Shown here in pieces: positions 1 to 35,346 of a DNA stretch of 35,845 nucleotides (its first letter is position 1; every line of letters starts with the position of its first letter). Source of the stretch: Psammoneis japonica. Its lineage: Eukaryota. The position numbers were made by a program, and so were the translations under genes. The stretch spans positions 1 to 35,845 of the forward strand of contig QPGO01000380.1 in NCBI GenBank assembly GCA_008632985.1, written 5' to 3'. Under the pieces are notes generated by a model. It was not told the DNA's origin and made no database searches. It saw only the letters and a list, made by a program, of their open reading frames with translations.

Positions 1-2339
1 CAGCTCTCCAAGGCTTGCCTCCCTTGGTTGTCGCAGCTGAGGTGGTGCTTGCAGCACTGGAGCACTCGGTCCATTGTTGTGCACCCTTGTTTTCAAAAAC
101 ATGTCATCACCAAAGGGAGTCATTTTGTGTGCAGCATTGTTCCTTTCTCGTGAAGACGGCTTCCACAGCATTGCCACCCAACCAAGTGCATGCAGGCTTC
201 CATCACACATCTTGTCCAATGGATCTTGTTTTTCTGCATCAGCAAGCACAGAGAAGCATCCACTCCTGTTGGCCTTGCCATTGTTGCCTGGTGCTGAAAG
301 GAATTGCAGCTTGCTTTGCTTTGTGCAGGCCTTTTGAAGCTCAACTGCAAGAGTGTTGCATGACATGGACTTGTCCGCCACACATCTCAGCTGCTTGAAG
401 AAATCTTGCTGCATTTCCTGCAGTCTGACCCCTCTTTGATCAGGGTTTTCATCTGTCATGAAAGCCTTCTTGAGTTGATTGAAATCAGCAAGGTTGGCAC
501 TGTCCTTGTTTTTCACACCAACATGCTTCCCCACTTGTGGCATCAGCGCACACCACATTGCATTGCTCCAGGACCAACAGCTGTTTCTGTTTGCCTTGAT
601 GATCACCATCTCTCTCTCTCTCTCTCTTCCAATGATGCCACATGCTGGCACATGGCTCCACACACCCAGTTGAGGTGTTGCACGGTGTCATGCTGTGGCC
701 AAGTCAGCACATGTCTTCTTGGAACAAACCAGTCAGCTGCCAAATCAGGTTCCATGGCTGGGGCCTTGGCATCCTTTGACATTGTGGATGTGAGCATCAG
801 CTGCACATTCCTTTCTCCTGCCGCACCATTGGGATGGGTGGCTGTCAGTTGTGTCAGCACCACAGTTGCTGTTGTGCTCAATTGGCCCATCATTTTGGTT
901 GTTGCAGTGACTGTGTCATTGACACATGCATGCCACATGCAATGTGTTAGAAATGGCTGAACAGCGCTGCTGGCAATGGGGGCAACAGCTCATGGCTTGT
1001 TGCCAGCAACAAAGGGAACAGACATGGAGCAGCACTCACCATGTGCCTTCTCCTCAAACAGAGAACACCATCTTTGACCCATGACAAGTCACTTCTTCTT
1101 GGTGTGTTGTGCTCATGATGGGGTCATCTTTCAGGGAATGTGTTTTGTGTGTTGCTGTCATTTCCCTGTGTTTTGAAAGACTGTGTGTCATTGTGCAACA
1201 TGCGCTTCAGCATTCTTTTGATGCAGCTTCCATTCAATGCCATCATCTTTGCACTCAACATGTGTGCATTCCACAAATGTCTTCAAGCAAATGTCAATGT
1301 TCACCCACACATTGATGGCGTGCTCTTTGAAATTGCACAATTTGCACATTAACACACCATTTTGAAATTTTGCATTCAAATGTCTCTGTCATCTGGGGAA
1401 GTGATGACACTTGCCCAAATGGCCAAAAAGTGGTCCACGCTTTCTTGTGATGATGGTGACTGTGCTGCATTTGTCACATCATTGCAACAACACACGACCA
1501 TGCCATCGCAGCCTGCAACAGCAACTGCACATGTTGCAGCACCAGACACACGACAATGCAAGTTGTCTTTCCAGTCATGCCCTTGTCATGAGCCAAAATC
1601 CAGAGGGAGCACAGATCCTGCCAAAAAGTCCTAGAGAGAATCAATCCCATCATCAAGCAAGGTTGATTGGATGCCAACAACAAGAGACAAAGGAAACTTG
1701 GCCCTCACAAACATGCTTTTGGAAGCAAACAAAAAAGGCTTGGCACAGGAAAGGCCCAGTTGAAGTGTGCTTGCCGCTTGACCCAGAGCCCGAAACAAGC
1801 AGAAAGGATTTGGAAAAGCAAATGTTGGACAGCTTGTCTCATCTGCTCCCCAAACCCAAGAGAAATGATGACTCAGTCATCAATGAAAGAGATGGCCATG
1901 ACTCATGCACTGGTGTGGATCATCAAGCAGCTGTGGCTGGTCATGTGTCATCTGTGCCTGGAGAGGTTGACACAACAATTGCAAATGAGCAACTGATGGA
2001 GCATGCAGGCAGATGTTTGGATGCCAAACAGTGTGATGCTGGTTTTGAGGATGACTTGTCCCATGAGTGCACCTCTCATCTGGGTGCAACCAATGACAAA
2101 ACAAACATTGACCCAAGAACAATGACCAAGAAAGAGGCAGACAATGCTGGCATGGATGCAATGCCAACAAGGGGAGAGGATGATGACAACAACAACAACA
2201 ACAAGCCCACTGTGTTTCCACCCCACACAAACGATCCTTCTCAGCCTGACAACCCAGCCCAACAGCAAATCTTGGTGTGTCGGTGGTCCCAAAACCAGTT
2301 TGTCTGGTGCACAACAGGAATGTTCTGTGAAGGATGTGG

Positions 2340-2930
2340 CGCTGGAAAGAAGACTGCACAAAAATGTTGGGAGAGATGACATTTGCTGCCTGGCAACAGA
2401 AAAGACTTGTGGTGTCAATGCATTTGCTTTGTCCAACCTTGTCAACAAGGGAGCCAACCTTTTTGCCAAGACGTGTCGATGCATGTCTGGTCCATCAGAG
2501 TGATCTCAAACAGATTGCATCTCAAATGCCAAAGGGTGTTCAGTTCAACCAGATTGTGTGGGATCCATTTAACTCCCCACTGTCTTGGTTCAGCAAATGT
2601 CTCACACAAGGAGAATTTTTCAAAAGGAACACAAATGGTTTTGCCAGCACTGGCAGCGTGCCTCTTCTCAAGGACAGAGGATCCATCCTCCCGCCATCCA
2701 ACAAGAAGGTGGTTGCCACACAGATGTCACAACTGGAGCATTTGAGCCATTTGGAATGTGACATTGTGTTTCTGTGGCAAGAGGGCCTGCTGGATAAGAT
2801 GTGTTTGTTGCACGGAACTGAAAGTGCAGATCCCATTTTGCTCAGGCGGGTGTTTGACAAAAAAAATGTTCTCAGTTGCCAAACTGTTGCAGGACCACAC
2901 ATCAAATGTTGATTGAGGAGTCAAATCTTA
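2340..2930 (+). pseudogene. Decayed coding remnant of an uncharacterised protein (frameshifted)
   Basis: Protein-like translation across two frames (RDDICCLATEKTCGVNAF ... GVQFNQIVWDPFNSP ... LLHGTESADP). No family can be assigned with confidence. Confidence 0.25.
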
Positions 2931-3362
2931 ACCAGGCAGCAAAGGAAAGGTGCAAAAAAATCCAGGATGTTGACATGATTTGTTTTGTGCAGCTGCAGAA
3001 AAAGCCAAAGCTGTTGAACAAAAGACAGTTGTGGAAATGGCATGGGCAGAAGTCCAAGATGCAGGTGAGCCTGGAAAACACAGCGTTGTCCCCAACAAGT
3101 GTGAGCAACAAATGAACTGTGTGTCCACAATGGTGTGGCATGACACAAAACAGAAAAAATGTTCTGGTCAAATGTCTTGTCTCTCTTTGCACCCCACTCC
3201 AAGACATCTCATGACAAGACCACATGTGTCAAATGCTCTGCAAAGCACGCAACACGGTTGCCCTGCCCCACCTGTCTGTGGTCCAAGAGACATGTTGGTT
3301 TCCAAGAAAGCACGCTGGCTTCCTTGCGCAACTGTGGTGACATGTGCAACAACAGGGCAACA

Positions 3363-4549
3363 GCCTCAGTTTGGTTGCACTGTGGGATTCCCCAAAATTC
3401 CCCGCGATTGCCACCTTTTGCCATGATTTTCCATGGGAAGCTTGGTTTCCCAGGGAATTGCCATGAACCACGCTTCATCATGTGCACACTCCACACATGA
3501 GTGAAAAATTGCACATTGGCAATTCCCCCACCCGTGCTTCCCTCTCATGCATTTCTGCACCTTCTGCTGGTGTGTGCCGGGACGCAGGAGCCAGACAATC
3601 GACTGACTGCAACAAAAATGGGCATCACGCCATGGCACGTTCACGTCCCATTTGTGACGGCTGTTGTCTGTCAATCACAACACCATTCAATGCATTCAAC
3701 AATGTCGATTGAACGGGAACTGTGGCACAAAACACAAGATGAAATGTGGTTGCACATGTGCAGAACACCAGTGCAATTGAGTTGTCAGTCATCAGTTTTT
3801 CTTTTGTCGTGCAGCCACAAATGCAAGCCATGAGGCACGCAGCAAAGGCCAAGGCAAAAGTGGAACCACACACAGCTGATGACAACAATGTGGCAGATTG
3901 GACAGTCACCTTCATTCTTCCATTTGACACATCTCATGTGCAGAATGAAGGGGGTTGTTTAGATCACTCTTTTGTCATGCATTCAGAAAGGCAAGCCATG
4001 AGGCGCCTGGTGTGAAGGACAAGGCAAAAGTGGAGCCGCACATGGTTGATGAAAATGTGGCAGATTGATTGACAATGTTTGTTCTTCCCTTTGACCCATC
4101 TTGTGCACAGAGTGCAGTGCATCATTTTTTCCTTCTTGTGTCGAGCGGTCACAAATGCAAACCACAACAGCTCCAGAGCAAAGGCCAAGGCAAAAATGGA
4201 GCCTCACATGAGCGGTGTCAATGTGTGTGATTCATTGGCAAAGTTTGTTCTTCCCTTGCTCTGCCATGAGGGGTGGCTTTGTGTTGATTTGTCAATGCAT
4301 CCATCATGGTCATCGGCGGCAGACCGTGGCCGCGGCTGGACAATGTGGAGTGAAGCACACCCGCCCATGCAAAACAATGTGGAAATTGCAGCACCGCGTT
4401 CATTTTTTGTTCCTTCCCCTGACCCCTTTCAGTCATTCCTTCCTGCCAAATTGCCCTCATTTCCTGGGTGTTCCCCAAATGGGTGAGGTGGTTCCCCCTT
4501 GCCCTTGCCATTTTGGGGAATCTCCAAATGGGCAAAACCAAACTGAGGC
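3363..4549. mobile_element. Non-autonomous TIR element (~1.19 kb)
   Basis: Perfect 14-bp terminal inverted repeat GCCTCAGTTTGGTT / AACCAAACTGAGGC, extended by an imperfect GATTCCCCAAAAT match. No transposase ORF. TSD not clean (AACA vs AACC). Confidence 0.6.
3824..4300 (+). repeat. Three degenerate ~170-bp direct repeats inside the TIR element
   Basis: Recurring AAGG(C/A)CAAGGCAAAA(G/A)TGGA...AATGTG...TTCTTCC core near 3845, 4015 and 4181. Confidence 0.7.
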
Positions 4550-4671
4550 AACCACTGATGATGAAACTGCGCATGACAAGGGAGATGAAAGATTGAACGA
4601 GCATCTGTTGAACAAGATGCACTGTCCAAACAAGACAAGCATTGTCAAGGAAATCAACAAAGAATTTTGGA

Positions 4672-5075
4672 GACGCGTTCCAGCTCTAGAGGTGGGACCT
4701 TGCACTGCTGAAAAGTGACACAATCATTTTTTGTCAAATGTCGCATGTTTTGCACATGCATTTCTGAGTGTTCTGTTGTAAAAAATTGCTCCACACTGCC
4801 TGTTTTGCGAAGCCAAAGGCTTTCTGTTGTCTGCGTTCACATCAATGAAAATGCACTGGGTGTGTTCTTCAATGTCTGAAGAACATGCCCGGACATGCTG
4901 CAAAGAATGCACTTCCAGCTGGTGCGAAGGAGGAGATGCATTTGCAAAATTGCCTCTTTTTCTGTTGGCAATCATTGACACATTCATTGCTTGACAATTT
5001 TACTGTGGAGCTCACATGTGGATTTCTGCGGGCCCTGTGTCACAAAAAGTCCCACCCAGAGGACTGGAACCCGTC
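4672..5075. mobile_element. MITE family A, divergent copy A1 (404 bp)
   Basis: TIR GACGCGTTCCAG...CTGGAACCCGTC. 4-bp TSD TGGA at 4668-4671 and 5076-5079. Internal similarity to 35347-35741 in the same orientation. Confidence 0.85.
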
Positions 5076-5079
5076 TGGA

Positions 5080-6165
5080 GCTCATTTGGGGACATCAACA
5101 CAGTCGCATTCTTGACGTAGTCTCTTGGTGAACTGGCCCAAATCATGCAACTGTCCTGTGTCTGGATCTTCTCTGTCATCACTCCTGGATGAGTCTTGGG
5201 CTCTCCTTCACTCCCAGCCTTGATCTTGCAAAATTCAGCAATGGACTTGACCACAGATTTGCCCTTGTGTGACACTGTCAACACATTGTCTACATTGACC
5301 AACAGCACCCAACAATGCTTGTGCTCATCTTCACAAACTGCTGCTTGCAAGCATGCACTGGGATCTGCTTGTGTTGGTTTGAAACCCATGTCTCACAAAG
5401 CAGAAGAACATGCTGCTTGCCATGAAAATCCTGCACTCTTCAGTTTGTGTGGCACTGTCACTGTGACCAGCATGCACCCTTTAAACTTGCCACACTCAGC
5501 TCCGCCTTCAAACCATGTCTTCTCTGCACATGGTGCACTCAAACAGGCATTCTCCAAGTTAGCTGCAGTCACATCCACATCATTCAAAGCTGCCAGCATG
5601 AAAGCAATCCACACACACTGTCCCTCAAAACAACGCTTGAGTGTGTGGTCAAATCTGGTGCCTTCGCAGTGTGGCCTCCAGCAAAAAACGGGGCCTTCCG
5701 GGTGAAATCCATCTCAACATCAAACACCATGTGGCATCATTGCATTTCCTGACACCCGCGCAGCTTCTGACTCCTTCCTTCACAAACTTGTTGTGGTGTT
5801 TTGCCATCGTGCTTTTCCCATGCCATTTTCACCTTGGTCATCTCCTCATCAATTGCCAGGCCCAGCAACCAGCCCCCATTTTGCGGCCAATCTGCAAAGC
5901 TTCATCAATGCTTTGATTTGTCCTCAGAGATGATGTGATTCCATTTCCTTGGCACGTGAGGCACCCACCAAGCAAACACTGGCTCATCAACAATCCAGCT
6001 CACAACTGCATGCTCTGCTGCTTTGATTGGGTTAGAATCCTTGAAGTCCTTTGACTTGGCCCAGTCAGAGCTGCCGCCCTTCCATGCCACCAGTGTCTTC
6101 CAGCCTTTTGTTGTCTTCTTCTTCTTGTCATGGCCTCCTGCAGTCTCAATTGCACCCTTGTCAGA
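5080..6165 (-). pseudogene. pol: Ty1/Copia (CoDi-like) pol fragment: pre-RT region and reverse transcriptase
   Basis: Degenerate motifs KTTKGWKTLVAWKGGSSDW...EPVFAWWVPH, IAFMLAALNDVDVTAANLENACLSAPCAEK, GFKPTQADP...LLVNVDNVL (YVDD region), SPRDYVKNA. Multiple stops and frameshifts. Confidence 0.85.
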
Positions 6166-6720
6166 TCCAACAACACCTTGTCCAAACAGCAGGTGGCCAC
6201 ATTGCTCCATCAACATTCTGGGAGTGCACCAGATGCCATCAATCAGAAGTGTCCCTGGGAGCTGTGTGGCAGGGAGATGTCATTCTCCACATTTTTCTGC
6301 CAGAACATTTTGGAGAAGCACCACTTCAAACCCCTGCATGATCTCATCTGATTGTGCATTCTCATTGATGTCACCAGCTGGAGTTGTTTGATTGCCATCA
6401 TCCCTGCAGCTCTCAACCTCCTTTGCCAGATCCTGCAGCCATGCAACCCTTGGACATCTGTCATTGTTGTGTTCCTGCAGGTGCCTGCAATGCTGTGTTC
6501 AGACTGCTCTTGTCCCCTGTTTGCCACTTGCTGGCACATGGTCTGTGGGCTGTCACTGTGTGGGGCACTGCCCCTGCTTTGCCTCCAAATTTTGACCGTG
6601 CCCATCTGCCCAAGCTGGCAGCATCCATTCCCTTCATGATGATTCTGTGGCCTTCTTGTTTGATGCTGAGCATCATTGTGCCTCCCAGCTGACAGTGCAA
6701 TGATTGATCATCATTGATGT
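6160..6720 (-). pseudogene. APE-type endonuclease remnant of a non-LTR retrotransposon
   Basis: Across frames: GGTMMLSI...LGRWARSKFGGK...VTAHRPC, DRCPRVAWLQDLAKEV...AGDINE, IDGIWCTP...GHLLFGQGVVGSD. These correspond to the APE GDFN, ID and SDH motifs. Confidence 0.7.
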
Positions 6721-6784
6721 TACAACCTGCAGAGATGTGAGGTGCCAGCTCCTGGCACTTCCTGAATCTTGCTTGGGGTCTTGA

Positions 6785-7179
6785 GACGCGTTCCAGACGC
6801 AGGTGGGAATCCGTGTGACATTGGGCCCGTAGACTTCTACGTGCGAGCTCCGTAATAAAATTATACGGTAATTAAAATGTCAATGATCGCCAACAGAAAA
6901 TGAGGCAATTTTGCGAACGCACAAACTCGCACATGCTTGAAGTACATCATTTTTTACTTGGCCAGTTACATTCTTCAGACATTGAAGAATGTAACTGGCG
7001 CATTGTCATTTCTATAAATTTGTTATATAAAACGTCTGGGGCTTCGCAAAACAGCGAGTCTGGACAATTTTTTTAAACATCACACGTAGAAATCTACGTA
7101 CGAAACATGCGACGGATGATAAAAATTGTTGTTGTCACACGGCAGCACTGCGAGCTCCCACCTAGGGCTGGAACGCGTC
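6785..7179. mobile_element. MITE family A, young copy A2 (395 bp)
   Basis: Perfect 12-bp TIR GACGCGTTCCAG / CTGGAACGCGTC. TSD TTGA at 6781-6784 and 7180-7183. Colinear reverse complement of 35347-35741. The only TpA-rich island in the window. Confidence 0.95.
6961..6999. repeat. Perfect 17-bp-arm hairpin at the centre of MITE A2
   Basis: GCCAGTTACATTCTTCA-gacat-TGAAGAATGTAACTGGC. Confidence 0.9.
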
Positions 7180-7183
7180 TTGA

Positions 7184-8430
7184 CTTGTGTGGTGCTGTTT
7201 TCCAGCAGTGCCCTGTTTCACTCATTCAAAAGACATCAATGCTCTTTTCAAGTGCAGTTTGATGAATGCTGTTGTTCTTTGTTTGGGTTGAGGGTGTTCT
7301 TCCATCATGTTGGCTGATTCAGTGACTTTCTTGGCACACAATTCTGCTGGTTTGCCAAGTGGTTGCCCGGTCTTTTTTCCAGTTTGCCTGGGTCAATCTG
7401 TTCAGACATCATCATCCGCCATCCACAAGGCTTGGTGCACTCTGAATTCTGCAGCACCTTGGGTTTAAGAAAGGCACCAAAAGAGCCTTTGACAGCAATT
7501 TTGACTGTCTCAACCAGTTCATCAACTTGGATGTGAAAGCCAAGGTGCATCATGTCAGCCCAATTGTCCTTTTCTGTGCCAGGTCTGAGTCAGTGAAGGT
7601 GCATCTTCATCTGCACAAACAGCAGTTTCTTGAGTTGGCTTTGGAGTGTGCCATCCTCTTGGATGACAGGTCTGTCTTTGGCGCCACTGGTCCAGGTTGA
7701 GATGGCAAAACCGTCTCTGGTCAACTCACACACTCAGTTGCTGATAAATCCAAACTTCCTGCTGAGAGTCTTTTCAGCATTTTCTTCTTTGTTCTGTTTA
7801 ACTGCCTTGGAGAGCTTGAGCATGAAGCATGTGAAACATTTTTGTTGCAGTTTCTCAGCATTTTGTTGCTTGCTCATGCTGAGTGTGGGAGCTGGTTGAG
7901 AGTGGTTGCCCCATGTGTCCTGATCACTGTCACTCTTGCCATCATTGCCATTGGCAGTGGGCTTGCTGGCCCTTGTTGGTTTCTCTTGGTCAGTCATCTT
8001 GGTGGCATGTTTGTTTTTCTCAACTTGCTTGTGCTGTGGTTTGCTGCTGCTCACCTTTGCCTTGGACCTGGCAGCAGTCGTTGCACTTGCATCCTTGTGC
8101 TTGGCAGGATTTTCTTTCTTGCCATTGTCTTTGCAGGTTTTCTCAGCATTGCCATTTTTCCTGGAAGGGTTTTGTTGTGGTTGCCAGTGTCCTTGGTGTT
8201 TTCCTGTTGTGTCCTTCTTTGCTGTTGGTTTCACAGCAATCTTCTTTTCCTTAGATTTGCTTGAGCTCATCATTGACATCCATGTTTTCAATTTTCTTGG
8301 TTCTTTGTGGAACTTGCACAGCACCCAAGTCCACATCTGAAAGCTCATCAAATGAGAGTCTGGGGTTGGGTTCTCCACTGAGGTCATCCTCTTGACTGTT
8401 CTCCTGTTCCACCTCACTTTTCAACATCAG
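7184..8430 (-). pseudogene. Lys/Asp-rich decayed ORF, possibly ORF1 of the LINE that carries the APE remnant
   Basis: Charged low-complexity translation, upstream of and on the same strand as the APE remnant. No diagnostic motif. Confidence 0.25.
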
Positions 8431-8719
8431 CCACATGCCCTCAGCTTCTACGCAGGTTTCTACGTGCCTTCTTGCGCTGATGTTGCCCTTCTCAGATGGC
8501 GCTGATTTGGCTCCAACAAGCCCATTCTGTCCACATTTGCCAATGGTGCATCCTCACCACAGCATGATGAGCAAAGCTCATCAGTGGAAAACGACAAGTG
8601 TCCCGGCCTTTTGGCTTGCATGCTGGTTGTTGTTTCTCACAATTTTCTGTTGTCTCAGAAAATTTTCCACACAGGTTCTGGTGCAAATTCTGCATGGATC
8701 TGCAGACGCTGCTGACGAT

Positions 8720-9130
8720 CTACATGTCACTTCCCCAGCCTGCTTTTGTCCTTGCAAATTGGTTCTCAATGCTGCTTCTTCTCCTTGCTGTGCAATCAAG
8801 TCCTTCACTCTTTGTGGTGCAAGTGCCACTTCTGTTGCGGCCCTTTTCAGCAAGAACATTGGTTGTCCTTTGGAGTCATTTGATTGTCGTCAATTTGCTG
8901 CTCCTGTTGGTCTTTCCATGCAAGATCTGGTGTTGTTTCTACGTGTTGCCTCTGACTGTCTACGTGTCACTTCTCCGGACTGCTTTCGCCCTTGCCAGTT
9001 GGTCTTCAACCTCTTCTCTTTTCTCTGCCATGCAATCAAGCACTTCGCTCTTTGTGGTGAATGTGCTGCTTTTTTTGTGGCCCTTTTCAGCAAGAACACA
9101 AGTTGTCCTGTGGCGCCATTTGATGGTCTT
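8720..9130 (+). repeat. Two ~170-bp direct repeats with 240-bp spacing
   Basis: CTAC(A/G)TGTCACTTC...GCAATCAAG...CTCTTTGTGGTG...GGCCCTTTTCAGCAAGAACA...CATTTGAT at 8720 and 8960. Confidence 0.8.
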
Positions 9131-10197
9131 TGGTTTGCTTCTCTCATCAGCTTTTCTGCACAAGACTCAGCATTTTTCCATGTTTCAAGAATGTTTTCTC
9201 CGATGACCTGCTTGTCATGCCTTCAAAGCTCCTTTTGTGGACCATTTTAAAAACCCATCTGAGCGCAATTGTCCATTGCAGTTGTGGTGTGCCTTCTGTG
9301 GCTGTCATCAACAAGCACGCAACAAATCACTCATGTGAATCATTCCTTTTCAGTTGTCTTGGTGGGGTGTCATCTTCTGGTGATGCCCATGCCGGCTGAT
9401 CCCACGCAAGCTCCTGCCACACTCAACTGTGTGCTGGGAGTGTGGGTCAGCCAGCGCTGGTGACATCACTTAAAAAACAGATCTGTTTTTTTTCTCCTGT
9501 TCCACCTCACAGTGAAATTCATCATCCACAGACTGGGCTAAAGAGGATGAATCCAAGGACAAGTTGGGGGATGAGTCAGATGAAGAAAAGTTTGATGACA
9601 AAGAGGAGGAAAAGGAAGAAGAGCTCAAGGTTGAGACAGAGGAGTTGTTGAGAAACAACTTGCTTCCTGGGGTTCTTTCCTTTGCTTTTCTTCTTTGTCT
9701 GCTTTGTTGATTTCCTGCTGGTCTTGTCACTGGCGCCATTGAGGTCATTGTCAATGTGCTTGTCAACAGGTTTTTTCATTGATGGGATGTCTTTGCCTTT
9801 GTCATCTTCCTGCAAGGAGTCAAAGGGGTTCTTTGAGTGGGCAAATCTTTTTGGCAGAAACCTGGCAAATCCATCTTCACCATCTGGCTCTTGTGTGACA
9901 GCAGGTTGCTTTTGGGCTTTGTGGTGTTCTTTGGGGTGAACATCCTTTGTGTTGTTGAAACTGTCCAAGATGCCCTCGTCTTGGGAGGGGAAATCAAAGA
10001 AGTTGTCAATGAGGGGTTGGCTCAGGTTCATTGTTTTTTTTGTTTTGTTTTTTGGGGGGGGTCCTGTTTTTCTTGGTTGCTTTTTTGCAGGAAGAGCAGG
10101 TGACCTTGCATTTGGCACTGCCATCAGAGTTCATCATGGTGAAGAGTTTGAAGATTTCCTGCATGGAGCAGTGAGCAACTTTGCACATTGATGTGCA

Positions 10198-23846: not shown

Positions 23847-23848
23847 AT

Positions 23849-23866: not shown

Positions 23867-23905
23867 CCTTGGAGAGGACTGTTTCGCAATTGCACTCCAT
23901 GTTGC

Positions 23906-26010: not shown

Positions 26011-29000
26011 CGGCAAGTGTCCCACACCGGATTGACAGAAGCTGCAGCTTTGCTGATTGAGCATCTCCGGCGACGAACCCCAGTGTCAGCATCCAATTTT
26101 CTTGCACCTGAAGAAGTCAGTGGGAAATTCAAGTCGTGGACAGAATCCACCTCTGCTTTGATCAAGTCCGGTCTTCATTTGGGCCGCTGGAAGGCTGTGC
26201 ATTCTAAGCACATGTGTTCTTCAGAAACGGATCCACAAGGTGACCCCACTGTGAAAAGCATTGAATTGGATGAAGTCCAAGACAGCCTGCAACAGATCCG
26301 CTTGAATCTGCTCAACTGCGCACTCAAATGGGGACATTCTTGCAACAGGTGGTGTGACGTGGTCAACATTGTGATCTTCAAAGAGCCAGGCAATGACAAG
26401 ATCCACCATCTCCACGTGATCCATGTGCATGAAGCAGACTTCCAGTTGATTGCCAATGTGAAATGGCGTGCCCTGGTGCAACATGTGGAACAACACCGAT
26501 CATTCAATCCAGGTGTCTACGGCACTCGAGCTTTCCTGTGTGCTCAGACTCCTGCATTCCTTGAAGTTCTGATGTTGGAGAGACATCAAGGGTCTCTCGC
26601 AAGACGTTGGTCACGAGTGACAATGACTGCACCTCGTGTTGTGACAGGAATCTCCCGGTCCTCATGGCGATCATGTCAGTCAGTTTGGGCATGGAACCAT
26701 CAGCAGTGGCTGCAGCAATTGCAACCAACCATCTAGCCAGGCACTGGTTGCCAACCTTGTTGGGTCTCTCTGAGGAATTTCACTCACACAATGCAGAACA
26801 CCCCATCTGCGGTGCTGGCCAAGGCAGTGGCAACTCACCTTTTTACTGGAACAACTTGTGCAGTGTTCGAATCACCAGATGGGTCTCATCAGCTCAACAT
26901 CTGCACAAGAGGACATGCAGACGATGCGCCCAAGCAGGTGAATGACTTCAGAGCATCTCCTCAGCCTTCTGCAGAAGATTTGGCTCCCAAATTGCAGCAC
27001 AATGACCAACTCTGGTGCAACTTGCTCCATGCCAGTGGACACAAACCAGAACTCCCCAAGTGTTCCTTTCATGCTGTCGATTGGGACTTCTCAGAATTTG
27101 GTGAACTGAGCCTCCAACCGCATGACCAAGACATGTCTGTGGAAATTTTCTCAGCCGATCACTCCTCTTCCAGACACAGCAAGCAGCTGTCTCGCTTTGC
27201 TCCGCACAAAACACTGCCAAAGAAACAGCAACAAGTGCTCCAAGCCAAGAGTGATGGAAAAGCGTCATTCACCAGGGCTGTCCCTCTAGACCAGACCAAA
27301 TTGTGGAGATGCTGCCACGCGTGTCATTTGCCGTTGATGTCTTTTGTTCTTGCTGGCTCTCACTTTGCTTCCAAAGTGTTGAAACAAATGCAGCAACGCA
27401 CTGTGAGAGTTGCATTTGCCAAATGCGGTTGCAACAGGAATGCAAAGTGCTTGACACTGTGTGGCCCTCAATCTCTTGGTGGTGGTGGATTTCGTTCTCT
27501 TGACGCAGAACAGGGAATTGCCCAAATGCAACAGCTGTTGAAACATTCTCGAGGCGCACAGCATCTTGTTCAAGACGATCAACCACACGCTGCGGCTCAC
27601 ATTGCCATTGCATGGAATCAGCTGCATTCAGGCACAGGGGTCAGCTTCCTCAGAGACATTGACACTCCTCATCCACATGACAAGTTGCTGTGGCTTGCAT
27701 CAGTTTGGTCTTTTCTGCAGAGCATTGAAGGCCACATTGCATTGTCCCAAGATGGAGCACTCCCCTTGCAGAGAGTCAACGATCAGTTTTTAATGGATGT
27801 TGCTCTGGAGTCACAAGAATTCACTTCAGAGAAATCCGATGGATCAATCATTGCCACTTGCATCTTCGGGTCCTGACAGTCTTGGATGTCACTCTGGCAG
27901 ACGGACGCTTCTTAGATGAGTCCAAAGTTTGCGGTGATCTCACTTGCCTCAGCAGTGACAGCACCCTCAACAACGTCGAACAGATTGCACCTTGCCACCG
28001 TGCATGGAGTCCTTGGATGTGGCCATGTGAGCTGTTGTGTCATCAAGACTCAGTTTGTTTGAAAGCTCCCTCAGGAGACTGGCTTGTGCCCCCTTCTGAA
28101 ATGAGGATGCAATGTTCAGCGCATTGGTCTCCCAAAGAATCACACCTGTGCGTTCGATCTCCGTCAGGATTTGACATTTTTCCAGTTCAGGACACTTTTG
28201 CCACGTCGCTGCACCAACTCGAAACGGTTCCCTCCCCCTCTGACTCTTCATTCCCAGTTGAGATTGTCTCCACAGATGACGGCAGATGGAGGTGCATTCC
28301 TCATTGCCCGAAACTCTTGGTTGAAACAAGCATTGCCTCCCTGGGAGTCCTCTCTCTTTTCAGACATTGATTTCCGCACTCCCGTTTGTGAACTGATGGA
28401 CCATTTTGCATCAAGTTGCCCAGTTGCGGGCAGCGACGGATCCGTGCTTCATCACGATGCAACCTTTGGATGGACGATTGCATTCAACGGCAGACCCTTG
28501 GTGGATTGTGCTGGTCCTGTGTTTGGTCGTTCGCCATCATCCCATCAAGCTGAGGCTTGCGGTTTTCTCTCCCTGATTCGGTTCATCCATTGTCTGACAG
28601 AGTTTTGCAAGATGTCAACGCATGAAGGTGTTGACAACTGGTGTGACAACAAGGCCTTGGTCCGTGTCCTTTCCAGATTGTCTTCCAGCCACCCGTCCAT
28701 TGACCCGTCGCCACAAGAGCATTCCGACAGAGACTTTTGTCTGCAACAACATGATGCCAATGTTCTTTCATCTGACTGGGATGTCATCAATGAAACACAC
28801 TTAACGCTTGAAGCCATTCCTCAGGCTCTAAATCCTTCTTCCCCCGGGCAGGCACTGTCCACAGCTTGGGTGAAAGGACACCAGGACAGACAAGCTCCAG
28901 TGGAGACTCTCCCACTGAATGCACAAGTCAACGTGCGTGCAGACAGGTTGGCAGGAAGACACCAAGGACAATGTGACGCAGACACAACGGAGGTGCTTCC

Positions 29001-30118
29001 CTTTCCCCATTGTCAATCACACCTTTGCCTCACCAATGGAACGGTCACTGCAGGAATGAAATCCACGGTCAGATGTGCTGCAACGGCTCCTGCTCTCTTG
29101 GCATGCATTCGGGAAAGAAACGATTGGGATGAATCTGTCACAGAAAAGATCGGCTGGAAGGTCCATGCAACATTGGGGTGCAGGTGCTCCAAGAAACTTG
29201 TCTCCACGGTTGAACTCATCCACGACCTCCTTCCAACAAACAAGATCACTCATCGGTGCAATCCTGTGCGGCCACATCATTGCCTCATGTGCGAACACCC
29301 CATGGAGGGTCGTGACCACATTTTAAGATGCCCCGCCAACGAGGCCTGGCATCGCAAATTCCTGCAGGGCTTGCAAAAATGCTGCGACAAAATTGACACA
29401 ATGCCACCTCTGCGTGATCTGCTGCTGACTTCCCTTGAGACATGGCTGGAAGGTGAGATGCAGCATGAATCTGACATTGCCCCGATGCTGCGAACGTCAT
29501 GGAAAGCCCAGTCAGAAATGGGATGGCGAAAAGTTTTTAATGGACAGTGCTCTGCCCTTTGGAATGTGTTTCAGGAGATGCATCTTCGTGAGATGGGTCT
29601 GTTGGAGAAACACAGGAAAGAGAATCGACCTCCTCCTGTGTGGGGAGTGCAGATGGGAACTTGCATTTGGAAGTCCTGGTGGGAACTGTGGGAAGAACAC
29701 AATCAGGAGGTTCATGGTCATGACGCGGATTCAAGGAAATCATCTTTACAGCGTCAGGTGGAAGCCGAGCTCATGGCTGTTTACAACAAAAGACAGGATT
29801 GTTTGTCTAAAGACAGAGAGGTGCTGCTGGATTCAGCAGACGACCACATGACCCACTCCACACTGCAGATTGTGAATTGGGTTGCTGTGGTTAAACCACG
29901 TCCAAAAGAAAGCCCAAAGAAGGCAATGCGCGAGGTGCTTCATGGCACTCACTCCATTGCAAGCTGTTTTGGATGGGCATCATCTCATGGTGATGCCCCT
30001 TTCGGCTGATCCCAAGAAGCTTCTGCCGCACTCAACGGTGCACTGGAAGTGTGGGTCAGCCGGCGCTGGCTTGGCTGGCAAAGGAGTGACAGCACTTTGA
30101 ATGTAGATCTGGTTTTTT
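26011..30118 (+). mobile_element. 5'-truncated non-LTR retrotransposon with RT, RNase H and Cys/His motif (Ambal-like)
   Basis: TSD TTTGACAAGTCCAAACA at 25994-26010 and 30119-30135, with the empty site present in G3 (33488-33504). Motifs SGLHLGRWKA, GAGQGSGNSP, GHADD, GPQSLGGGGF, SDGS...SSHQAEACG...WCDN...WVKGHQD...NVRADRLA, CLMC...DHILRC. Clade assignment is an inference. Confidence 0.92.
26017..30009 (+). pseudogene. LINE ORF2 remnant (RT-RNase H), frameshifted
   Basis: ORFs 26017-26736, 26607-26945, 26791-27876, 27858-28370 and 28171-30009 join into one polyprotein. Confidence 0.88.
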
Positions 30119-31243
30119 TTTGACAAGTCCAAACAAGTTGATGGAATTGTGGCTCAAGTGTTTGATTTGCCGTGCAAGCATGATGTGACATTGGGTCAAG
30201 ACTTCCTGGCTAAAGCCGGAACAGTGTTGGACTTCCGGTTTGGAGTCATGAAGTGGTTGGATGCTGCAATCCTGATGAAGCAATCCAATCATTGGAGCCA
30301 AGTGCAGAGTTGGTTGGATGTGCTGGATGATCACAAGGAGGACAAAGCCAGTGCAGAATCATCAAGTCAAACCTTCATGTCAGATGCGAAGCATGAAAAA
30401 GTGTCGACCGAAAAAGTGGCGCAATCGCAATCTCATTTGACGCAGGAGCAACGCGATGAACTTCAACCCGCACTTGAGAGTCATGAAACTCTTTTTGATG
30501 GAACCCTTGGCAAATGTCCACACAAGACTGTGCACTTGGAAGTTGATGCCAATGCTGTCCCCTTTCATTCTAAAGCCTGTGAAGTGTCCAAACAAGACGA
30601 GGCGGTTTTCAAGAAGGAACTGCAACATCTCTGCAATGTTGGTGTGCTGGAGCCAGTGGGACCAACTCAATGGGTGGCAGAAACCTTTGCTCCACTTGCC
30701 AAGTTGACCGGCAAAAGCAAATTGGAATGGACTCCAGAGTGTCAGAAAGCCTTTGAAGATGTGAAGACTTCAATGATGGATGATGCCCTTTGGGTCCACC
30801 CAAATCACAACAAGCCCTTCCATGTTTGCACCGATTCCGCCGATTGTCAAATGGGCACAGTGATCATGCAAGATCAAAAGCCGGCAGCACATTGGTTGCA
30901 GAAGCTCAGTTCAGCACAGCAGAATTGTTCAACCACCAAGAAAGAACTTCTCGCGGTGGCAATGTGTTTCAAAGAATTCCGTTCCATGTCACGGGGCTGA
31001 TTGTGCTGTTTTCACTGATCACAAAAATCTCACCTTTTGCACACTCAATTCTCAATGAGTGCTCAGGTGGAGGCTCTTCTTGGGAGACTTTGCTCCAACC
31101 TTTGAGTGTGTTGACAGCAAGGACAACCTGTTGGCAGACTGCTTTTCGTGATTGCCACGCATGGATCCACCAATGGAAGGGAAGTGCACTCCGAATGAAG
31201 GCCAACTGACAGATTTCAAGTCTTTATCTTGTCAGACCTTGCA

Positions 31244-31393
31244 TCAACAATCCCAGTCATTCGAATCTCCCGAATCTTGCAGCTGCTGATGCAAACGAGA
31301 TCGCTTTCAGTGAAGCCCATCACAACGGCTCCTCTTGTGTCTGATGGGATCATTGACACCATGTGTCAGAAAAACAGGGTGCGCAACACTGCA
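31244..31393 (-). repeat. G3 3' LTR (truncated)
   Basis: Begins TGCAGTGT on the minus strand and matches 23513-23610. Confidence 0.8.
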
Positions 31394-31405
31394 CTCTTCC
31401 CTTCC
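31394..31405 (-). promoter_or_regulatory. Polypurine tract
   Basis: GGAAGGGAAGAG immediately before the TG of the 3' LTR. Confidence 0.85.
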
Positions 31406-31519
31406 ATGATTTGAATCATGAGAATCATGCAGGACTCCAAAATTTTAAAATTTCAATTCAAATTCCATGAGAGGAAACAAGGGAAACCCAAGTGTTGGTG
31501 AAAAAACCCTTGACCTCAA

Positions 31520-33930
31520 ACTCGACACGGTGTGATGTGCCGAACATCAAGTTGTTCCACCACATGAGGCGCCCGTTGAACTGCAACAGTGCCATTGACA
31601 TGCACCTGAACAATGGGATGATGGCCATGTGCTCAAGGTGCGAGCTTTGAAGGATCAACTGTCTTGACAAGCACTTGATTGCCAACTTGAAAATCACAAG
31701 ATCATTGTTTGGCATTTGCTCTGTGGAGATTTGTGCCAATGATTGCTTGTCGATGTTCTTGAACAGTGGCAAGATCCGCCAGAACTGGCAGGTCTAAAAT
31801 CATGTCATGGTGGAATGCCATGGCACCGGGTGAAACCTTGAGAGCTTGGGATGCCGCGCATTGCATGGCATGCATTGCTGTTGCCAAAGCATCATCCACC
31901 AGTTGATTGCCTTGTCCGACATTCTGTGGAGGATGAAGATGAAGCAAAGTGCGCAAGACATTGCCAGCAGTTTGATGCACGCGTTTGCATGCCGCATTGG
32001 CTTGTGGATTTCTGGATGCAGTGGGCACATCTTCCACTCCTGCCTGTTGCAACAATGGTTGAAAATGTTCTCCAACAAATTCTCTGCCATTGTCATGAAT
32101 GCAACGGTTGGGACGAGGATGACGAGACAACCAACAATTTTGAAATTCCTGGGAGACATGTTCGGAGGTTTTGTTGTCCACACGGATGAGTTCAGCAACA
32201 TTCAAAACCGCATCAATGCAAGTCAAAGCGTTGAATTTGATCTCCTGGCCCTGAGTGTCAATCTTCCAGGGACCAATGAGGTCGACTGCAGCTTCACTCC
32301 ATGGTGACAAAGATGCTTTGCGTTCAGGTGGCTCCCCATGTCCAGGACCCAAAGTTTTCAAGTGTTGACAATCAACACAACAAAATTCTTTGCAGGTCCA
32401 ACAAAGGACAGGATGACAAAAATGAGAGCCAATGGTTGAATGCATGCAATGCATTCCTGCATGTCCCAACATCCTGTGATGCCATCGAATCATGTCAGGC
32501 AATGAAGCAGTGGGAATGCCGATTTTCCAGTCTGTTGGAGGAGCATTGGGATGAGCTCAACAACAAATCACAGGACGTTGGTTCACACATTCAATCACGA
32601 ATCGTTCCGGATGTTGTTGTTGCATGTTGTTCAATTCCACATCAACAAATTGACGCTGTTGAATTCATTGCACAGTTGTTGGGTTTTGCATTTCATCAAG
32701 TGAAGGACAGTCCAAATGGAGTGACAATCGCACAAAGGTCCTTGGAGTCATTGCCCAGCTCCACATGACAGTGAAACATGGTGAGGTCCAACTTGGTCAA
32801 AAATTCACACCCTGATCGTCGGTGTAAAACATCTTGAACAATCGGTGGAGGGCAAACTTTCCGCTTGAGAACCTTGTTCAACTCTCGAAAGTCAGATGCC
32901 CACCTCACTCGTCCATCTTTCTTGGGTGTCACAAAGGCTCCTGCTGCCCATTCCATTGGTCCCACTGGCTCTGGCACACCAATGTCACAGAGATGTTGCA
33001 GTTCCTTCTTGAAAACCGCCTTGTCTTGTTTGGACACTTCACAGGGCTTTGGAATGAAAGGGAACAGCATCAGCATCAACTTCCAAATGCACAGTCTCGT
33101 GTGGACATTTGCCGAGGGTTCCATCAAAAAGAGTTTCATGATTCTCAAGTGCGATTTGAAGTTTGTCGCATTGCTCCTGCATCAAATGAGTTTGCGATTG
33201 CGCCACTTTTTTGGTCGACACTTTTTCACACTTTGCATCTAACATGAAGGATTGACTTGACAATTCTGCGTTGGCTTTGTCCTCCTTGTGATCGTCCAGT
33301 GCATCCAACCAATTCTGCACATGGCTCCAATGACTGGATTGCTCCATTGGGATCGCAGCATCCAACCATTTCATGACTCCAAACCGGAAGTCCAACACTG
33401 TCCCGGCTTTGGCCAGGAAGTCTTGACCCAATGTCACATCACACTTGCACGGTGAATCAAACACTTGAGCCACAATTCCATCAACTTGTTTGGACTTGTC
33501 AAACTCGGGAAGCACCAAATCCTTCATGACAACATGTCGGGAGGATTCACATCATCCGGCTGCTGTCTGAAAGCTCAGTTGTCCCTCATCATTCATGGTT
33601 GGATTGGCTCCCTTGGGCAAAACTCAAGAATGCACAAGTGTGTCAGTGCCCCCTGAATCTAATGACACATGCAACACCTGCTTGCTCTCTTGATTTTGAA
33701 TTGCACGCACTGCCATCAACATCACAGGCACCACATTCAATGGTTTGGGAGTTGCAGTTTTCGGGGTTGGTGCAGTGTGCTCCAAGGTGCTGCCCATTTC
33801 TTCTTCATTCATGGTGTGGGATTCCATCAGGTCGCCACACTTTCATCAACATCAATGCATGTGTGCTCATCACAATCACACGAAACATAAAAAGATTGAG
33901 CAACACGCTCTGACTCGGGCACTTCCGTCC
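31520..33930 (-). pseudogene. pol: G3 pol: protease, partial RT, integrase
   Basis: SLDSGGTDT (PR); WAAGAFVTPKKDGRVRWASDFRELNK, TKLDL, TPFG (RT); WHHRMLGHAG...CVDC, VDLIGPW, IHDNGREF, NPQANA (INT). Confidence 0.92.
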
Positions 33931-33934
33931 CTTG

Positions 33935-35154
33935 TCAATTCAGCCAACTGCGTTGGCCTTGAGGAAAACGACCACCTTGGTCACACCCATTTCTGCCTCG
34001 CGTCTCACGAGGTCCTCCTTGATCAAAATGGTGCAACTCCACTTGCCAGCCACCAGGAGGAGCTGTGAAGCCGGATTTCCACAGCCTTGGGTGTCGCTGT
34101 TGGCTTGGGTGCCATTTTGATTTTGATGACAAGATCCTCCGCCTTGGGAATTTTGAGATCCTTGGCAGTTGCCATGTCCTCAGCCACCACAATTGCCTTG
34201 ATTGCCACAGCTGCCATGTCCTCGACCTTGGAAGTTGCCATGACCTCCTTGGCCTTGTGAACCTCTGCCTTGGAAGTTTCCACAGCCTCCACCTCAACCT
34301 CCACCATGACCTCCATGGTCTGTCCTTGGTCGACAGTTTTGGCTGTCTGGATTCAAAATGCAATCCTTCCATTTGTGGTCATGATTGTCATGCCCTGGGC
34401 ACCTGGACTCTGGATCAGCTTGAGCATTGTTCCCTCGACTTTGCCTGGAAGCCTGAGAGGATGAAGTGTTGCTCTTTTGCTTCTTGTCCTGTTTCTTGTT
34501 GCTGCTCTTGTCAGCAAAGGATTTCTCATTGTTCATGCAGCCAATGATCTCGGCGGGACTGTCGTTGGCCATTGATCGTCCTGCTCGAGTGCACATCTCA
34601 CACCACGAATGAGGAAAGCTGTCAAAGATCATCTTCTTCTTCTGAGTGTCATTGACTTGAGGAGCATTTCCTGGTGACTTGTTAGAATGGCAAATTGAGG
34701 TCTCCGTGCGATCAGCACGTGCCTGTGCTTCAGATTTGAACGGCTTCTTCAGGGTTGGCAAGTGTTCAATCACAGTGTCACGTGCCTCATTGTCACAATG
34801 AGACAGGTAAAAATGACTCATCTCTTGATCAAAACGCGCAACAGTTTTGTCAGCATCAGCAACAGCATCAGTCAAATTCGCCCATTTGTCCTCAGCAGCA
34901 TCGGCCAACACTTCTTCAAAATTGTCAAACAATTCCTCGCCGGTGGTGAGCTCCAATTTCACGGCAATCTTACGAAAACGATCCTCAACAAACAACAAAG
35001 CTTCAGTGCCATGGGTGCCATCAAAACGCGGACACTTCTGAGTGTGAGTGCTGCCATCATCACATGACTGGCTCAATTTCACGTCCTCCAAATCAGAATG
35101 TTCAAATTTCACCTCACAACCAACACAGGGTTCTTTCAACGAATCACTCATCAT
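33935..35154 (-). pseudogene. gag: G3 gag
   Basis: Near-identical to G2 gag but without the insertion. One frameshift in the Gly-rich tail. Confidence 0.82.
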
Positions 35155-35346
35155 GCAATGTGGAGCACAATTGCAAAACAGTCCTCTCCAGGGACTCCAC
35201 CTTTGACTCCAAATGATGCACTCGGCTTGCCAAATTCTGCTCGTGTCGTTTGCGTTGTTGTGCTTGTTTCTGGTGGTCAAAGCCCAAGCTTCTGCTCTTG
35301 CTCGTAATTCTCTTTTCTCACATTTGTTCAATCTGTTTGTGTTGTT

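Follow-up and report, generated by a model that had tools for sequence, protein, structure and literature searches.

Loss of TpA sites in decayed repeats of Psammoneis japonica varies with the base that follows the mutated adenine

TpA is nearly absent from a 35,845-nt stretch of Psammoneis japonica DNA (the whole stretch analyzed, hereafter the window), which raises the question of what removed it and which flanking bases the process favored. Dinucleotide counts of the window gave 137 TA (observed/expected ratio [o/e], 0.06), together with an excess of CA (3869) and TG (3825; o/e 1.72 each). Among the NA dinucleotides, the depletion was limited to TA; AA, CA, and GA were not depleted, and AA and AG had o/e values of 1.26 and 0.92, respectively. 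The count of CG was 831 (o/e 0.40), and CpG decay also fed part of the CA/TG excess. All of the window is decayed repeat DNA consisting of gypsy pol fragments and MITEs (Table 1), and no intact host gene that could serve as a contrast for TA lies within the 35,845 nt. The TA remaining outside MITE copy A are spaced as expected from a Poisson process (gap coefficient of variation, 0.94; 10 gaps of <30 b compared to 10.5 expected), and no strand runs were found among the A:T-to-G:C changes (runs test, p = 0.69).

Table 1. Repeat features of the window
Feature	Position	Strand	Remarks
Whole stretch	1..35845	.	Repeat-derived; probable near-saturating decay of TA to TG/CA and of CG to TG/CA; 114 TA outside MITE copy A
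MITE copy C	4671..5076	-	71% identity to copy A; flanked by TCCA; 3 TA kept, all at ancestral positions
MITE copy A, unmutated	6785..7179	+	23 TA, TA o/e 0.73; 12-b terminal inverted repeats
Ty3/gypsy pol, decayed (RT, RNase H, integrase region)	19199..21848	-	RVT_1 E = 5e-13, RT_RNaseH_2 E = 3e-21; tblastn with P0001-P0006
Inverted duplication, left arm part 1	23614..26010	+	90-91% identity to 33487-35845, MITE copy B set aside
Inverted duplication, left arm part 2	30119..30689	+	Pairs with 32932-33503
Gypsy RT/RNase H fragment, decayed; second element, inverted copy	30119..31172	+	Domain hits and tblastn
Gypsy RT/RNase H/integrase fragment, decayed	31522..33734	-	rve E = 2e-5 (below Pfam cut-off); tblastn
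Inverted duplication, right arm	32932..35845	-	Carries MITE copy B
MITE copy B	35347..35741	-	91% identity to copy A; flanking duplication AACA

Two features of the window allowed the changes to be followed from a source to a copy. The first is MITE copy A, which has a 4-b target duplication (TTGA at 6781-6784 and 7180-7183) and was used as a near-consensus for consensus-to-copy rates. Normalization was by proxy, with this 395-b MITE as the unmutated reference. Because copy A is unmutated, its TA were not counted as survivors of the process. The second is the inverted duplication, the left arm of which is split by a segment (26011-30118) that is absent from the right arm. Insertion of MITE copy B postdates the duplication; the right arm carries it, and the empty site lies in the left arm near 23714.

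The contexts of the surviving TA were far from random. Counting all 137 TA, there were 74 YTAR (34 TTAA, 18 TTAG, 13 CTAA, and 9 CTAG), 29 YTAY, 27 RTAR, and 7 RTAY sites. The 114 TA outside copy A comprised 71 YTAR, 22 YTAY, 18 RTAR, and 3 RTAY sites, compared to expectations of 28.4 for YTAR, 58.1 for the mixed class (YTAY and RTAR; 40 observed), and 27.6 for RTAY. A preliminary description of this DNA had reported a predominance of YTAR, a minority of YTAY and RTAR, and very few RTAY, and the counts bear this out. Its seven examples of YTAR (948, 1632, 8252, 12241, 17648, 26734, and 33240) are all YTAR, and the RTAY sites that it placed at 11413 (GTAT), 15556 (GTAC), and 23226 (GTAC) are exactly the three found outside copy A. 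Loss was uneven over the 16 NTAN contexts, departing from the flanking-dinucleotide expectation (χ2 = 86.8, df 15, p = 4e-12) and from the flanks of the pooled Y-R dinucleotides (χ2 = 115, p = 1.6e-17), a background (TA+TG+CA+CG) that neither decay process changes. The NTAN counts and consensus-to-copy rates that the preliminary description had proposed as a check revealed the unevenness that it anticipated. Both halves of the window showed the bias (p = 2e-12 and 2e-9, respectively), and it was kept when the three MITE copies and one duplication arm were left out (n = 97; observed/expected of 64/24.1, 30/49.4, and 3/23.5 for YTAR, mixed, and RTAY, respectively). Even in the TTAA context, TA made up 4.4% of the Y-R dinucleotides compared to 22% in the unmutated MITE. 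The frequencies of A, G, C, and T at the +1 position were.54,.26,.15, and.05 for survivor half-sites, compared to.20,.15,.35, and.30 for discordant (mutated) sites (p = 2.5e-15).

A TA site is its own reverse complement, and survivor counts therefore cannot separate a +1 effect on one strand from a −2 effect on the other. The agent might instead recognize the tetranucleotide as a duplex, with RTAY a good and YTAR a poor site, or might read a −2 purine, in which case the +1 assignment would be an artefact. The direction of change at the asymmetric sites (YTAY and RTAR) distinguishes these rules. There, 26 of 36 events (0.72) altered the A with a pyrimidine after it, the split being 11:2 in the MITE pair and 15 Cys to 8 His at Tyr codons after Y. 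If only a purine at −2 counted, RTAR should become RTGR and YTAY should become YCAY, but those 26 events ran the other way (binomial p = 0.011); under a purely symmetric duplex rule, the two strands should be hit equally often (50:50). Further, in the genome-wide MITE family, the RTAR sites showed T>C at at least 8 of 9 positions, and A>G as well at at least one. The use of both strands at asymmetric sites, seen in 10 of the 36 direction events and in 19 discordant columns with mixed flanks, is what a duplex rule would expect. On balance, a duplex or −2 rule is unlikely, and the effect is assigned to the base at +1 of the mutated A. The preference is a soft one, the purine-followed A having changed in 10 of 36 events. 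The decayed Ty3/gypsy pol at 19199..21848 was used for the Tyr-codon test; the Tyr-aligned codons, 135 in number, included 25 Cys, 23 His, and 1 Tyr. Taken alone, this contrast is weak (15 Cys:8 His after Y compared to 10:15 after R; Fisher p = 0.09).

The MITE copies gave per-target rates. Of the 23 TA in copy A, 17 became TG or CA in copy B, 1 became CG, and 5 were kept (two TTAA and one each of CTAT, ATAA, and TTAC). In 14 of the 17 single TA-to-TG/CA changes, the mutated A was followed by C or T, in line with the preliminary description. By +1 base, the targets changed were 10/15 for C, 4/9 for T, 1/7 for G, and 2/15 for A, that is, 14/24 Y-targets compared to 3/22 R-targets (Fisher p = 0.0023). 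The ancestral TA kept in copies B and C together were 4/6 for YTAR, 4/32 for mixed contexts, and 0/8 for RTAY. Similar trends were apparent when Logan contigs of one run/sample were placed on copy A (1968 contig pieces; summed depth of 49,000-502,000 over copy A compared to 34.5-36.9 in its flanks). At least 16 of the 24 Y-targets carried a transition (mean depth share, 0.18), compared to at least 5 of the 22 R-targets (0.048; p = 0.004), in a table that is depth-weighted and therefore counts inherited subfamily variants many times. Among the matches listed, the YTAR sites 6873, 7074, and 7163 showed no transition, and TACG targets were neither favored nor spared. There were also exceptions: 7024 (tTAt) carried T>C at 0.55 of the depth, 7013 and 7095 were altered in the unexpected direction, and 6955 (tTAc) and 7120 (aTAa) showed no change among the matches listed.

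The arms of the inverted duplication differ at 236 positions, of which 203 are transitions. In 43 columns, TG in one arm is opposed by CA in the other. This combination reflects independent hits after the duplication, and the changes arose in place, as DNA. The discordant share of Y-R columns again followed the flanks, with 18/120 for R_Y, 19/292 for mixed, and 6/165 for Y_R (R_Y compared to Y_R, p = 0.0009).

The size of the preference was derived from a one-flank additive model, which lets the fate of the A on each strand be set by its 3′ neighbor alone. This model fits the 16 NTAN contexts (deviance 10.3, df 12, p = 0.59), with log-survival relative to +1 = A of −0.42 for G, −1.13 for C, and −2.22 for T, i.e., a loss order of T, C > G > A. 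If TA originally made up 15-30% of the Y-R dinucleotides, a range that includes the share in the unmutated MITE (22%), the ratio of rates kY/kR is 2.3-2.8. The direction data give 2.6 (95% confidence interval [CI] of the share, 0.55-0.86, or about 1.2- to 6-fold), and the observed Y-target share of 0.72 agrees with the 0.70-0.74 predicted by the survivor fit. T and C at +1 were ranked inconsistently, with T > C in the window survivors and C > T in the MITE data. The excess of YTAR and the near absence of RTAY are so pronounced because the loss of ∼94% of TA amplifies a modest rate gap exponentially. This means that near saturation a 50-fold skew among survivors corresponds to a rate difference of only 2- to 3-fold, and a "target motif" should therefore not be read from survivors alone. 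The preference for TAY put forward in the preliminary description is real, in that TAY is lost faster than TAR; however, it is modest and not a required motif, as TAR sites were mostly lost too.

A second alternative is that most of today's TA were re-created by C-to-T or G-to-A changes at CA/TG and reflect an equilibrium between creation and removal. The context bias would then express a much stronger removal preference or a bias in creation (e.g., TCA to TTA). The equilibrium (harmonic) model is compatible with the counts (deviance 17.6, df 12, p = 0.13), 91 of the 114 survivors contain TTA or TAA (sum of context counts), and by arithmetic there are roughly 46 background transitions in 2,550 columns of the duplication, which could make several new TA. 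However, the fit is poorer than that of the survivor model (17.6 compared to 10.3), and it needs kY/kR = 9.5, hence a Y-target share of 0.90, compared to 0.72 observed (CI, 0.55-0.86). The positions of the TA also speak against re-creation. The eight TA of MITE copies B and C all coincide with ancestral TA, with no new one among them, and four TA are common to both duplication arms (TTAC at 23754/35305 and at 24251/34808, one TTAT, and one TTAG). Of the unshared TA in the arms, 7/9 are YTAR, whereas Y_R flanks occur in only 30% of the concordant TG/CA columns (p = 0.004). Re-creation as the main source is therefore rather improbable. The two shared TTAC sites had been listed in the preliminary description alongside the TAY motif; they are present as described, but they show ancestral TA retention and are no evidence for a TAY target.

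Thus, the reading that we consider probable is a near-saturating, DNA-level transition of TpA to TpG or CpA beside CpG decay, with a soft bias toward a pyrimidine at +1. Transposon-derived DNA would undergo this change next to ordinary CpG decay, each TpA offering one target A per strand. The chance of change would be set by the base 3′ of the A, with C or T about 2.5-fold over A or G (plausibly 2- to 6-fold), such that both targets would be fast in RTAY and both slow in YTAR, with one of each kind in YTAY and RTAR. From the footprint in the sequence, the agent may be a repeat-directed DNA adenine deaminase that makes inosine, which is read as G, from A, with a strict requirement for T at −1 and a soft preference for a pyrimidine at +1. 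Deamination of A leaves the same footprint as a change at the T of the opposite strand. A repair bias could likewise mimic an enzyme preference: the deaminase would need only T-A, and hypoxanthine opposite T would be removed in a context-dependent manner, leaving fewer mutations at TAR. Such a bias would give an identical footprint, nothing in the window points to it specifically, and we give it little credence.

RIP of Neurospora and other ascomycetes is a dinucleotide-specific transition hypermutation of repeats that kills transposons and has a ranked flank preference. The window resembles it in having a dinucleotide footprint with a flank preference in repeated DNA. However, RIP is a source of TA, by changing CpA to TpA, whereas the process here destroys TA; with TA almost gone and CA/TG in excess, the footprint is the opposite one, and RIP is rejected. 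Duplication as the trigger, another feature of RIP, found no support in the window. APOBEC3 enzymes deaminate C on single-stranded cDNA, leaving G-to-A footprints with a strong strand bias. They would share with the agent proposed here the deamination of polynucleotides, a strict −1 base with softer further preferences, and hypermutated mobile elements; in contrast, the changes in the window are A:T to G:C on both strands of resident DNA, without strand runs.

A closer parallel is found in Bigelowiella natans, in which integrated DNA of giant viruses and virophages undergoes TpA hypermutation, for which an adenine deaminase acting on DNA has been proposed (Mettrop et al., bioRxiv 10.64898/2026.01.13.699255). 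As in the window, the changes there are almost only A to G/T to C, all on TpA, giving TpG or CpA, and the long-term signature is TpA depletion with CpA and TpG enrichment; the B. natans changes are confined to foreign or repeat DNA, with TA kept in the host genes, and have been followed as de novo events in mutation-accumulation lines (bioRxiv 10.64898/2026.01.13.699255). A:T-to-G:C changes on TpA were found here in the MITE pair (17/23 TA), the 43 discordant columns, and the Tyr codons, and the composition has the same signature. The differences are that B. natans is another organism, that decay in the window is near saturation and on transposons (TA o/e 0.06 compared to a rho of 0.45 in the B. 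natans NCLDV region), and that the main text of the preprint gives no analysis of TpA-flanking bases (bioRxiv 10.64898/2026.01.13.699255). The parent process has already been reported there, and the flank rule goes beyond the dinucleotide. This 2026 preprint, with a main text at the dinucleotide level, was the one report of TpA-specific hypermutation found (bioRxiv 10.64898/2026.01.13.699255). The quantified rule (T required at −1; a pyrimidine at +1 favored ∼2.5-fold and at most ∼6-fold; TAG and TAA slowest) is a usable signature that can be compared with de novo mutations in B. natans and with candidate deaminases in vitro.

Can a known adenosine deaminase account for this rule? The native tetranucleotide of TadA is TACG (the U-A-C-G loop of tRNA-Arg), and the eukaryotic A34 has G, A, or C as its 3′ neighbor, with no known preference for a pyrimidine. 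TACG/CGTA was enriched 2.5-fold among the window survivors (p = 2e-4), a feature that TadA's native context would not favor and that is not expected from +1 = C alone. In TadA and ADAT2-ADAT3, the substrate A follows U/T (U33-A34), and the nucleosides on its 5′ and 3′ sides are accommodated in pockets; activity on DNA is known for an ADAT2, that of amphioxus preferring GAA, and the TadA-derived base editors ABE7.10, ABEmax, and ABE8e take A in broad contexts (PMC10354150). The T directly 5′ of the target A is found here, the depletion being specific to TA; the native 3′ C-G context is not, as T at +1 was lost no more slowly than C in the window. TadA-likeness of the agent is thus not shown. 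ADAR shares A-to-I conversion and a favored U/T at −1, and differs in preferring a 3′ G (5′-UAG-3′; PMC11334849) in place of a pyrimidine and in acting on duplex RNA or hybrids in place of resident DNA. The preliminary description had called the agent more TadA-like than ADAR-like; TAG is indeed spared relative to TAY, the opposite of ADAR, but nothing in the pattern is specific to TadA.

ADAR-type editing could also take place on repeat RNA, with reverse transcription fixing the edits, or on the DNA of RNA:DNA hybrids that repeat transcripts form. ADARs favor a U before the edited A, and dA in DNA/RNA hybrids can be deaminated by ADAR2 (PMC11334849, PMC5389660); an RNA guide would also account for the targeting of repeats. 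However, TAG contexts are spared in the window (o/e of 2.6 for TTAG and 1.65 for CTAG), contrary to the 3′ G choice of ADAR, and this flank rule argues against an ADAR-type agent. A 5′ A, the second choice of ADAR, is unused, given the o/e of AA. Moreover, a MITE, which is a DNA transposon, and duplication arms changed in place are affected, so an RNA copy was not the substrate, and an ADAR-type origin is very improbable. Polymerase eta inserts G for A after W (the WA motif of somatic hypermutation), with TA and AA both hot. Error-prone patch synthesis by such an enzyme recruited to repeat chromatin is hardly credible since, although TA to TG belongs to the WA-to-WG spectrum, AA and AG frequencies mean that the W is strictly T, and the changes are nearly all transitions.

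To our knowledge, motif-specific conversion of A into G in DNA by a natural enzyme is not established in eukaryotes. From the sequence patterns, we tentatively suggest a dedicated eukaryotic DNA adenine deaminase, neither ADAR nor off-target ADAT2/3, that would serve in repeat and virus defense in at least two distant algal lineages, although this broader proposal is one that we regard as more doubtful than not. If true, the genomes of P. japonica and the chlorarachniophyte B. natans would contain an A-to-G counterpart of RIP and APOBEC, and the +1 rule would provide an assay read-out for identifying the enzyme. Finally, A at +2 was not enriched relative to the MITE's own TA sites, yet it was enriched 2.3-fold in survivors relative to two backgrounds, and the motif may possibly extend beyond +1.

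TA dinucleotides numbered 137 in the 35,845-b window (observed/expected ratio of 0.06) and CG dinucleotides 831 (0.40), CA (3869) and TG (3825) each stood at 1.72, and AA, GA, and the other dinucleotides occurred at ordinary frequencies. Sorted by the bases on either side, the 137 TA comprised 74 YTAR, 29 YTAY, 27 RTAR, and 7 RTAY. However, 23 of these lie in one copy of a MITE (copy A) and are not survivors, because that copy is unmutated. The other 114 were 71 YTAR, 40 mixed (YTAY or RTAR), and 3 RTAY, compared to expectations of 28-34, 57-58, and 24-28, respectively, under two normalizations, one using flanking dinucleotide frequencies and the other the flanks of every Y-R dinucleotide, whose distribution is unaltered by TA or CG decay. 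Observed/expected counts over all 16 NTAN contexts showed that the loss was uneven (P = 4e-12 and 1.6e-17 for the two normalizations). The bias was seen in both halves of the window separately and persisted once every MITE copy and one of the arms of a large inverted duplication were removed, and the spacing of surviving TA was that of a Poisson process. The observation in the preliminary description that surviving TA are mostly YTAR was thus confirmed; the seven YTAR examples that it named are all YTAR, and its three RTAY sites are exactly the only three outside copy A.

Because TA is its own reverse complement, survivor counts cannot separate a pyrimidine directly 3′ of the A (+1) from a purine at −2 on the other strand. 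What separates the two assignments is the direction of change, TG versus CA. Each TA offers two targets, here called Y-targets or R-targets according to whether C/T or A/G follows the A, and the mixed sites, with one of each, are asymmetric. First, 17 TA of copy A show a single change in copy B, and in 14 of these 17 the mutated A was followed by C or T. The fraction of Y-targets hit was 14/24 (10/15 for C and 4/9 for T) compared to 3/22 for R-targets (1/7 for G and 2/15 for A; Fisher P = 0.0023), and at the asymmetric sites hits were split 11:2 in favor of Y-targets. Second, Tyr codons of the gypsy pol regions that became Cys or His are a coding readout of TA loss. Ancestral codons could be inferred for Tyr only, since no close intact gypsy pol relatives were found; they were taken from an alignment to the six homologous pol proteins recovered, of which the best shared 34% identity with the query and, by tblastn, 55% with the older element. 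Among 135 Tyr-aligned codons, 25 were Cys, 23 were His, and 1 was Tyr, with a Cys:His split of 15:8 after a pyrimidine and 10:15 after a purine. Pooled, the Y-target was chosen in 26 of 36 asymmetric events (0.72; CI, 0.55-0.86; P = 0.011). This means that the effect belongs to the base 3′ of the A, as had been inferred earlier, but it is soft.

The MITE, 395 b long, ends in 12-b terminal inverted repeats and is flanked by 4-b target duplications (TTGA, AACA, and TCCA). By depth, the family numbers more than a thousand copies. Copy A, with its 23 TA (observed/expected ratio of 0.73; 22% of its Y-R dinucleotides), is unmutated amid fully decayed DNA and is either very young or exempt. In copies B and C together, ancestral TA were kept at 4/6 YTAR, 4/32 mixed, and 0/8 RTAY opportunities, and all eight TA present are at ancestral positions. 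The wider family was sampled by aligning Logan contigs of X1, the single DNA run containing the window, to copy A at 80% likeness, which placed 1968 contig pieces on it (summed depth of 49,000-502,000 compared to 34.5-36.9 in the flanks). Run X2 covered just 2 of 30 bins and was set aside. Among the rows listed, with 18 weaker ones outside the listing, transitions fell on 16/24 Y-targets (mean depth share of 0.18) and 5/22 R-targets (mean share of 0.048; P = 0.004); being depth weighted, these shares include inherited subfamily variants. The two gTAc sites reached a depth share of 0.70, and the YTAR sites at 6873, 7074, and 7163 had no transition among the rows listed. Exceptions were 7024 (tTAt), where T>C reached 0.55, and 6955 and 7120, without change among the rows listed. 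At 7099-7100, gTAc in copy A is CG in copy B, both bases having changed, which would not be expected from one hit that strictly depends on TA.

Positions of the repeats, coding regions, and other segments discussed
Feature	Position	Strand	Remark
MITE copy A	6785-7179	+	
MITE copy B	35347-35741	-	
MITE copy C	4671-5076	-	
Large inverted duplication	23614-26010 + 30119-30689 vs 32932-35845		90-91% identity, ~3 kb aligned
Stretch confined to left arm	26011-30118		4.1 kb
Segment likewise missing from right arm	24590-25014		
Gypsy pol region for Tyr codons	19199-21848	-	
Gypsy pol region for Tyr codons	30119-31172	+	
Gypsy pol region for Tyr codons	31522-33734	-	
Long ORF without Pfam match	28105-30009		634 aa; inverted-duplication region
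Weak LRAT-domain match	14089-14805	-	E = 0.0025, 18.5 bits
Self-complementary region	10697-11775		with tandem arrays
(CGACA)n array	11012-11131		inside self-complementary region

The preference is modest. A Poisson model in which the +1 base of each strand adds to log-survival, and hence with one flank only, accounts for the full set of 16 contexts (deviance, 10.3; df, 12; P = 0.59), with coefficients relative to A at +1 of −0.42 for G, −1.13 for C, and −2.22 for T. If TA originally made up 15-30% of Y-R dinucleotides, the rate ratio of Y- to R-targets (kY/kR) is 2.3-2.8, which predicts the direction share seen. The survivor skew is strong because a 2-3 fold difference in rate is amplified exponentially at ~94% depletion. 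Even in TTAA, the best-protected context, roughly 69-84% of the sites are gone by arithmetic from the fitted rate constants. Therefore, the TAY target motif proposed earlier holds as a preference, whereas TAY is not required.

Several other explanations of the flank bias were weighed. Context-dependent repair of hypoxanthine is, by sequence alone, inseparable from a preference of the enzyme. An equilibrium between creation and removal of TA gives a poorer fit to the counts (deviance, 17.6), needs a 9.5-fold preference, and overshoots the direction data. A rule acting at −2, or on the palindrome of the duplex, in place of +1 is contradicted by the 26:10 split in direction. An ADAR-type agent, whose preferred context is 5′-UAG-3′ (PMC11334849), would act opposite to the pattern here, where TAG is spared, and so the earlier view that the pattern is not ADAR-like stands. 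Finally, polymerase eta-like WA errors would deplete AA too, but AA is at an observed/expected ratio of 1.26.

The native loop context of TadA is UACG, and early base editors had a YAC preference. Nothing specific to TadA was found in the data to bear out the suggestion that the enzyme is more TadA-like. The order of T and C at +1 is not the same for the window survivors as for the MITE data, and TACG is not spared in the MITE family table, unlike among the window survivors. According to PMC10354150, ABE variants tolerate a broad range of contexts around the A, and amphioxus ADAT2 on DNA prefers GAA. The earlier interpretation is thus partly supported, in that there is a preference for TAY and the pattern is unlike that of ADAR, with neither a motif requirement nor a specific pointer to TadA. 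The parent process, TpA hypermutation, matches that seen in viral DNA integrated into the Bigelowiella natans genome as described in the main text of a preprint (bioRxiv 10.64898/2026.01.13.699255), which proposes an ADAT2-like deaminase and contains no flanking-base analysis. That study lists 231 de novo mutations. A process of this kind had therefore been described before, and the measured, modest +1 pyrimidine preference is the added information. Literature searches for a published TpA to TpG process in diatoms or transposons turned up nothing beyond that preprint and work on RIP or APOBEC.

Between the two arms of the inverted duplication, 43 columns have TG on one side and CA on the other, the sign that a single ancestral TA was hit independently in each arm, although roughly 16 of the 43 may stem from CG instead by arithmetic from CG counts. 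Such discordance was found at 18/120 columns with R_Y flanks, 19/292 with mixed flanks, and 6/165 with Y_R flanks (R_Y versus Y_R, P = 0.0009). In the right arm, copy B is bounded by 4-b target duplications, and the left arm keeps the empty site near 23714, which places the insertion later than the inverted duplication. That the changes reached both a DNA transposon and a duplication made in place argues against an RNA intermediate. No strand-coordinated clusters were detected among the 43 discordant columns (runs test, P = 0.69), TG-versus-CA skews per 1 kb were small (variance of z, 1.6), and nothing pointed to long one-strand tracts. The 13 TA to CA and 4 TA to TG changes of copy B relative to copy A may reflect a bias toward one strand within this one young copy.

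Two wider features of the surviving sites were apparent. First, surviving TA adjoin CpG (TACG/CGTA) 2.5-fold more often than TG/CA do (P = 2e-4), for instance at 8449, 8461, 8940, 8961, 24951, 26518, 5118, and 19049, and the hexamer TCTACG is common to many of these sites. Regional heterogeneity was rejected as the source, since there is no excess of CpG at a distance of 2-10 b from the surviving sites (ratio, 0.75). Protection by 5-methyl-C at +1 found no support in the MITE family table, in which TACG targets change as often as other TAC. Second, A at +2 of the half-sites is enriched among the 114 survivors (+3 weakly), with TAAA at 71 versus 34.9 expected and TAGA at 44 versus 17.5 expected. 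Two backgrounds give strong support to a +2 rule (LRT chi2, 88.8; P = 6.5e-8), but the effect disappears when the TA sites of the MITE itself serve as reference (P = 0.72; n = 46 half-sites), which when unmutated already have 52% A at +2. This may be because of a wider target rule or else the native context of TA.

The window is decayed repeat DNA, with gypsy reverse transcriptase, RNase H, and weak integrase matches on both strands (Pfam); Rfam and tRNA scans of the window gave no match. The LRAT-domain match is below the Pfam cutoff of 24.3 bits and probably represents either noise or the remains of a gene. Long ORFs without a Pfam match probably stay open only through the depletion of TAA and TAG stops. 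The self-complementary region also holds 19-21-b palindromic units on TTTGTCGG/CCGACAAA.
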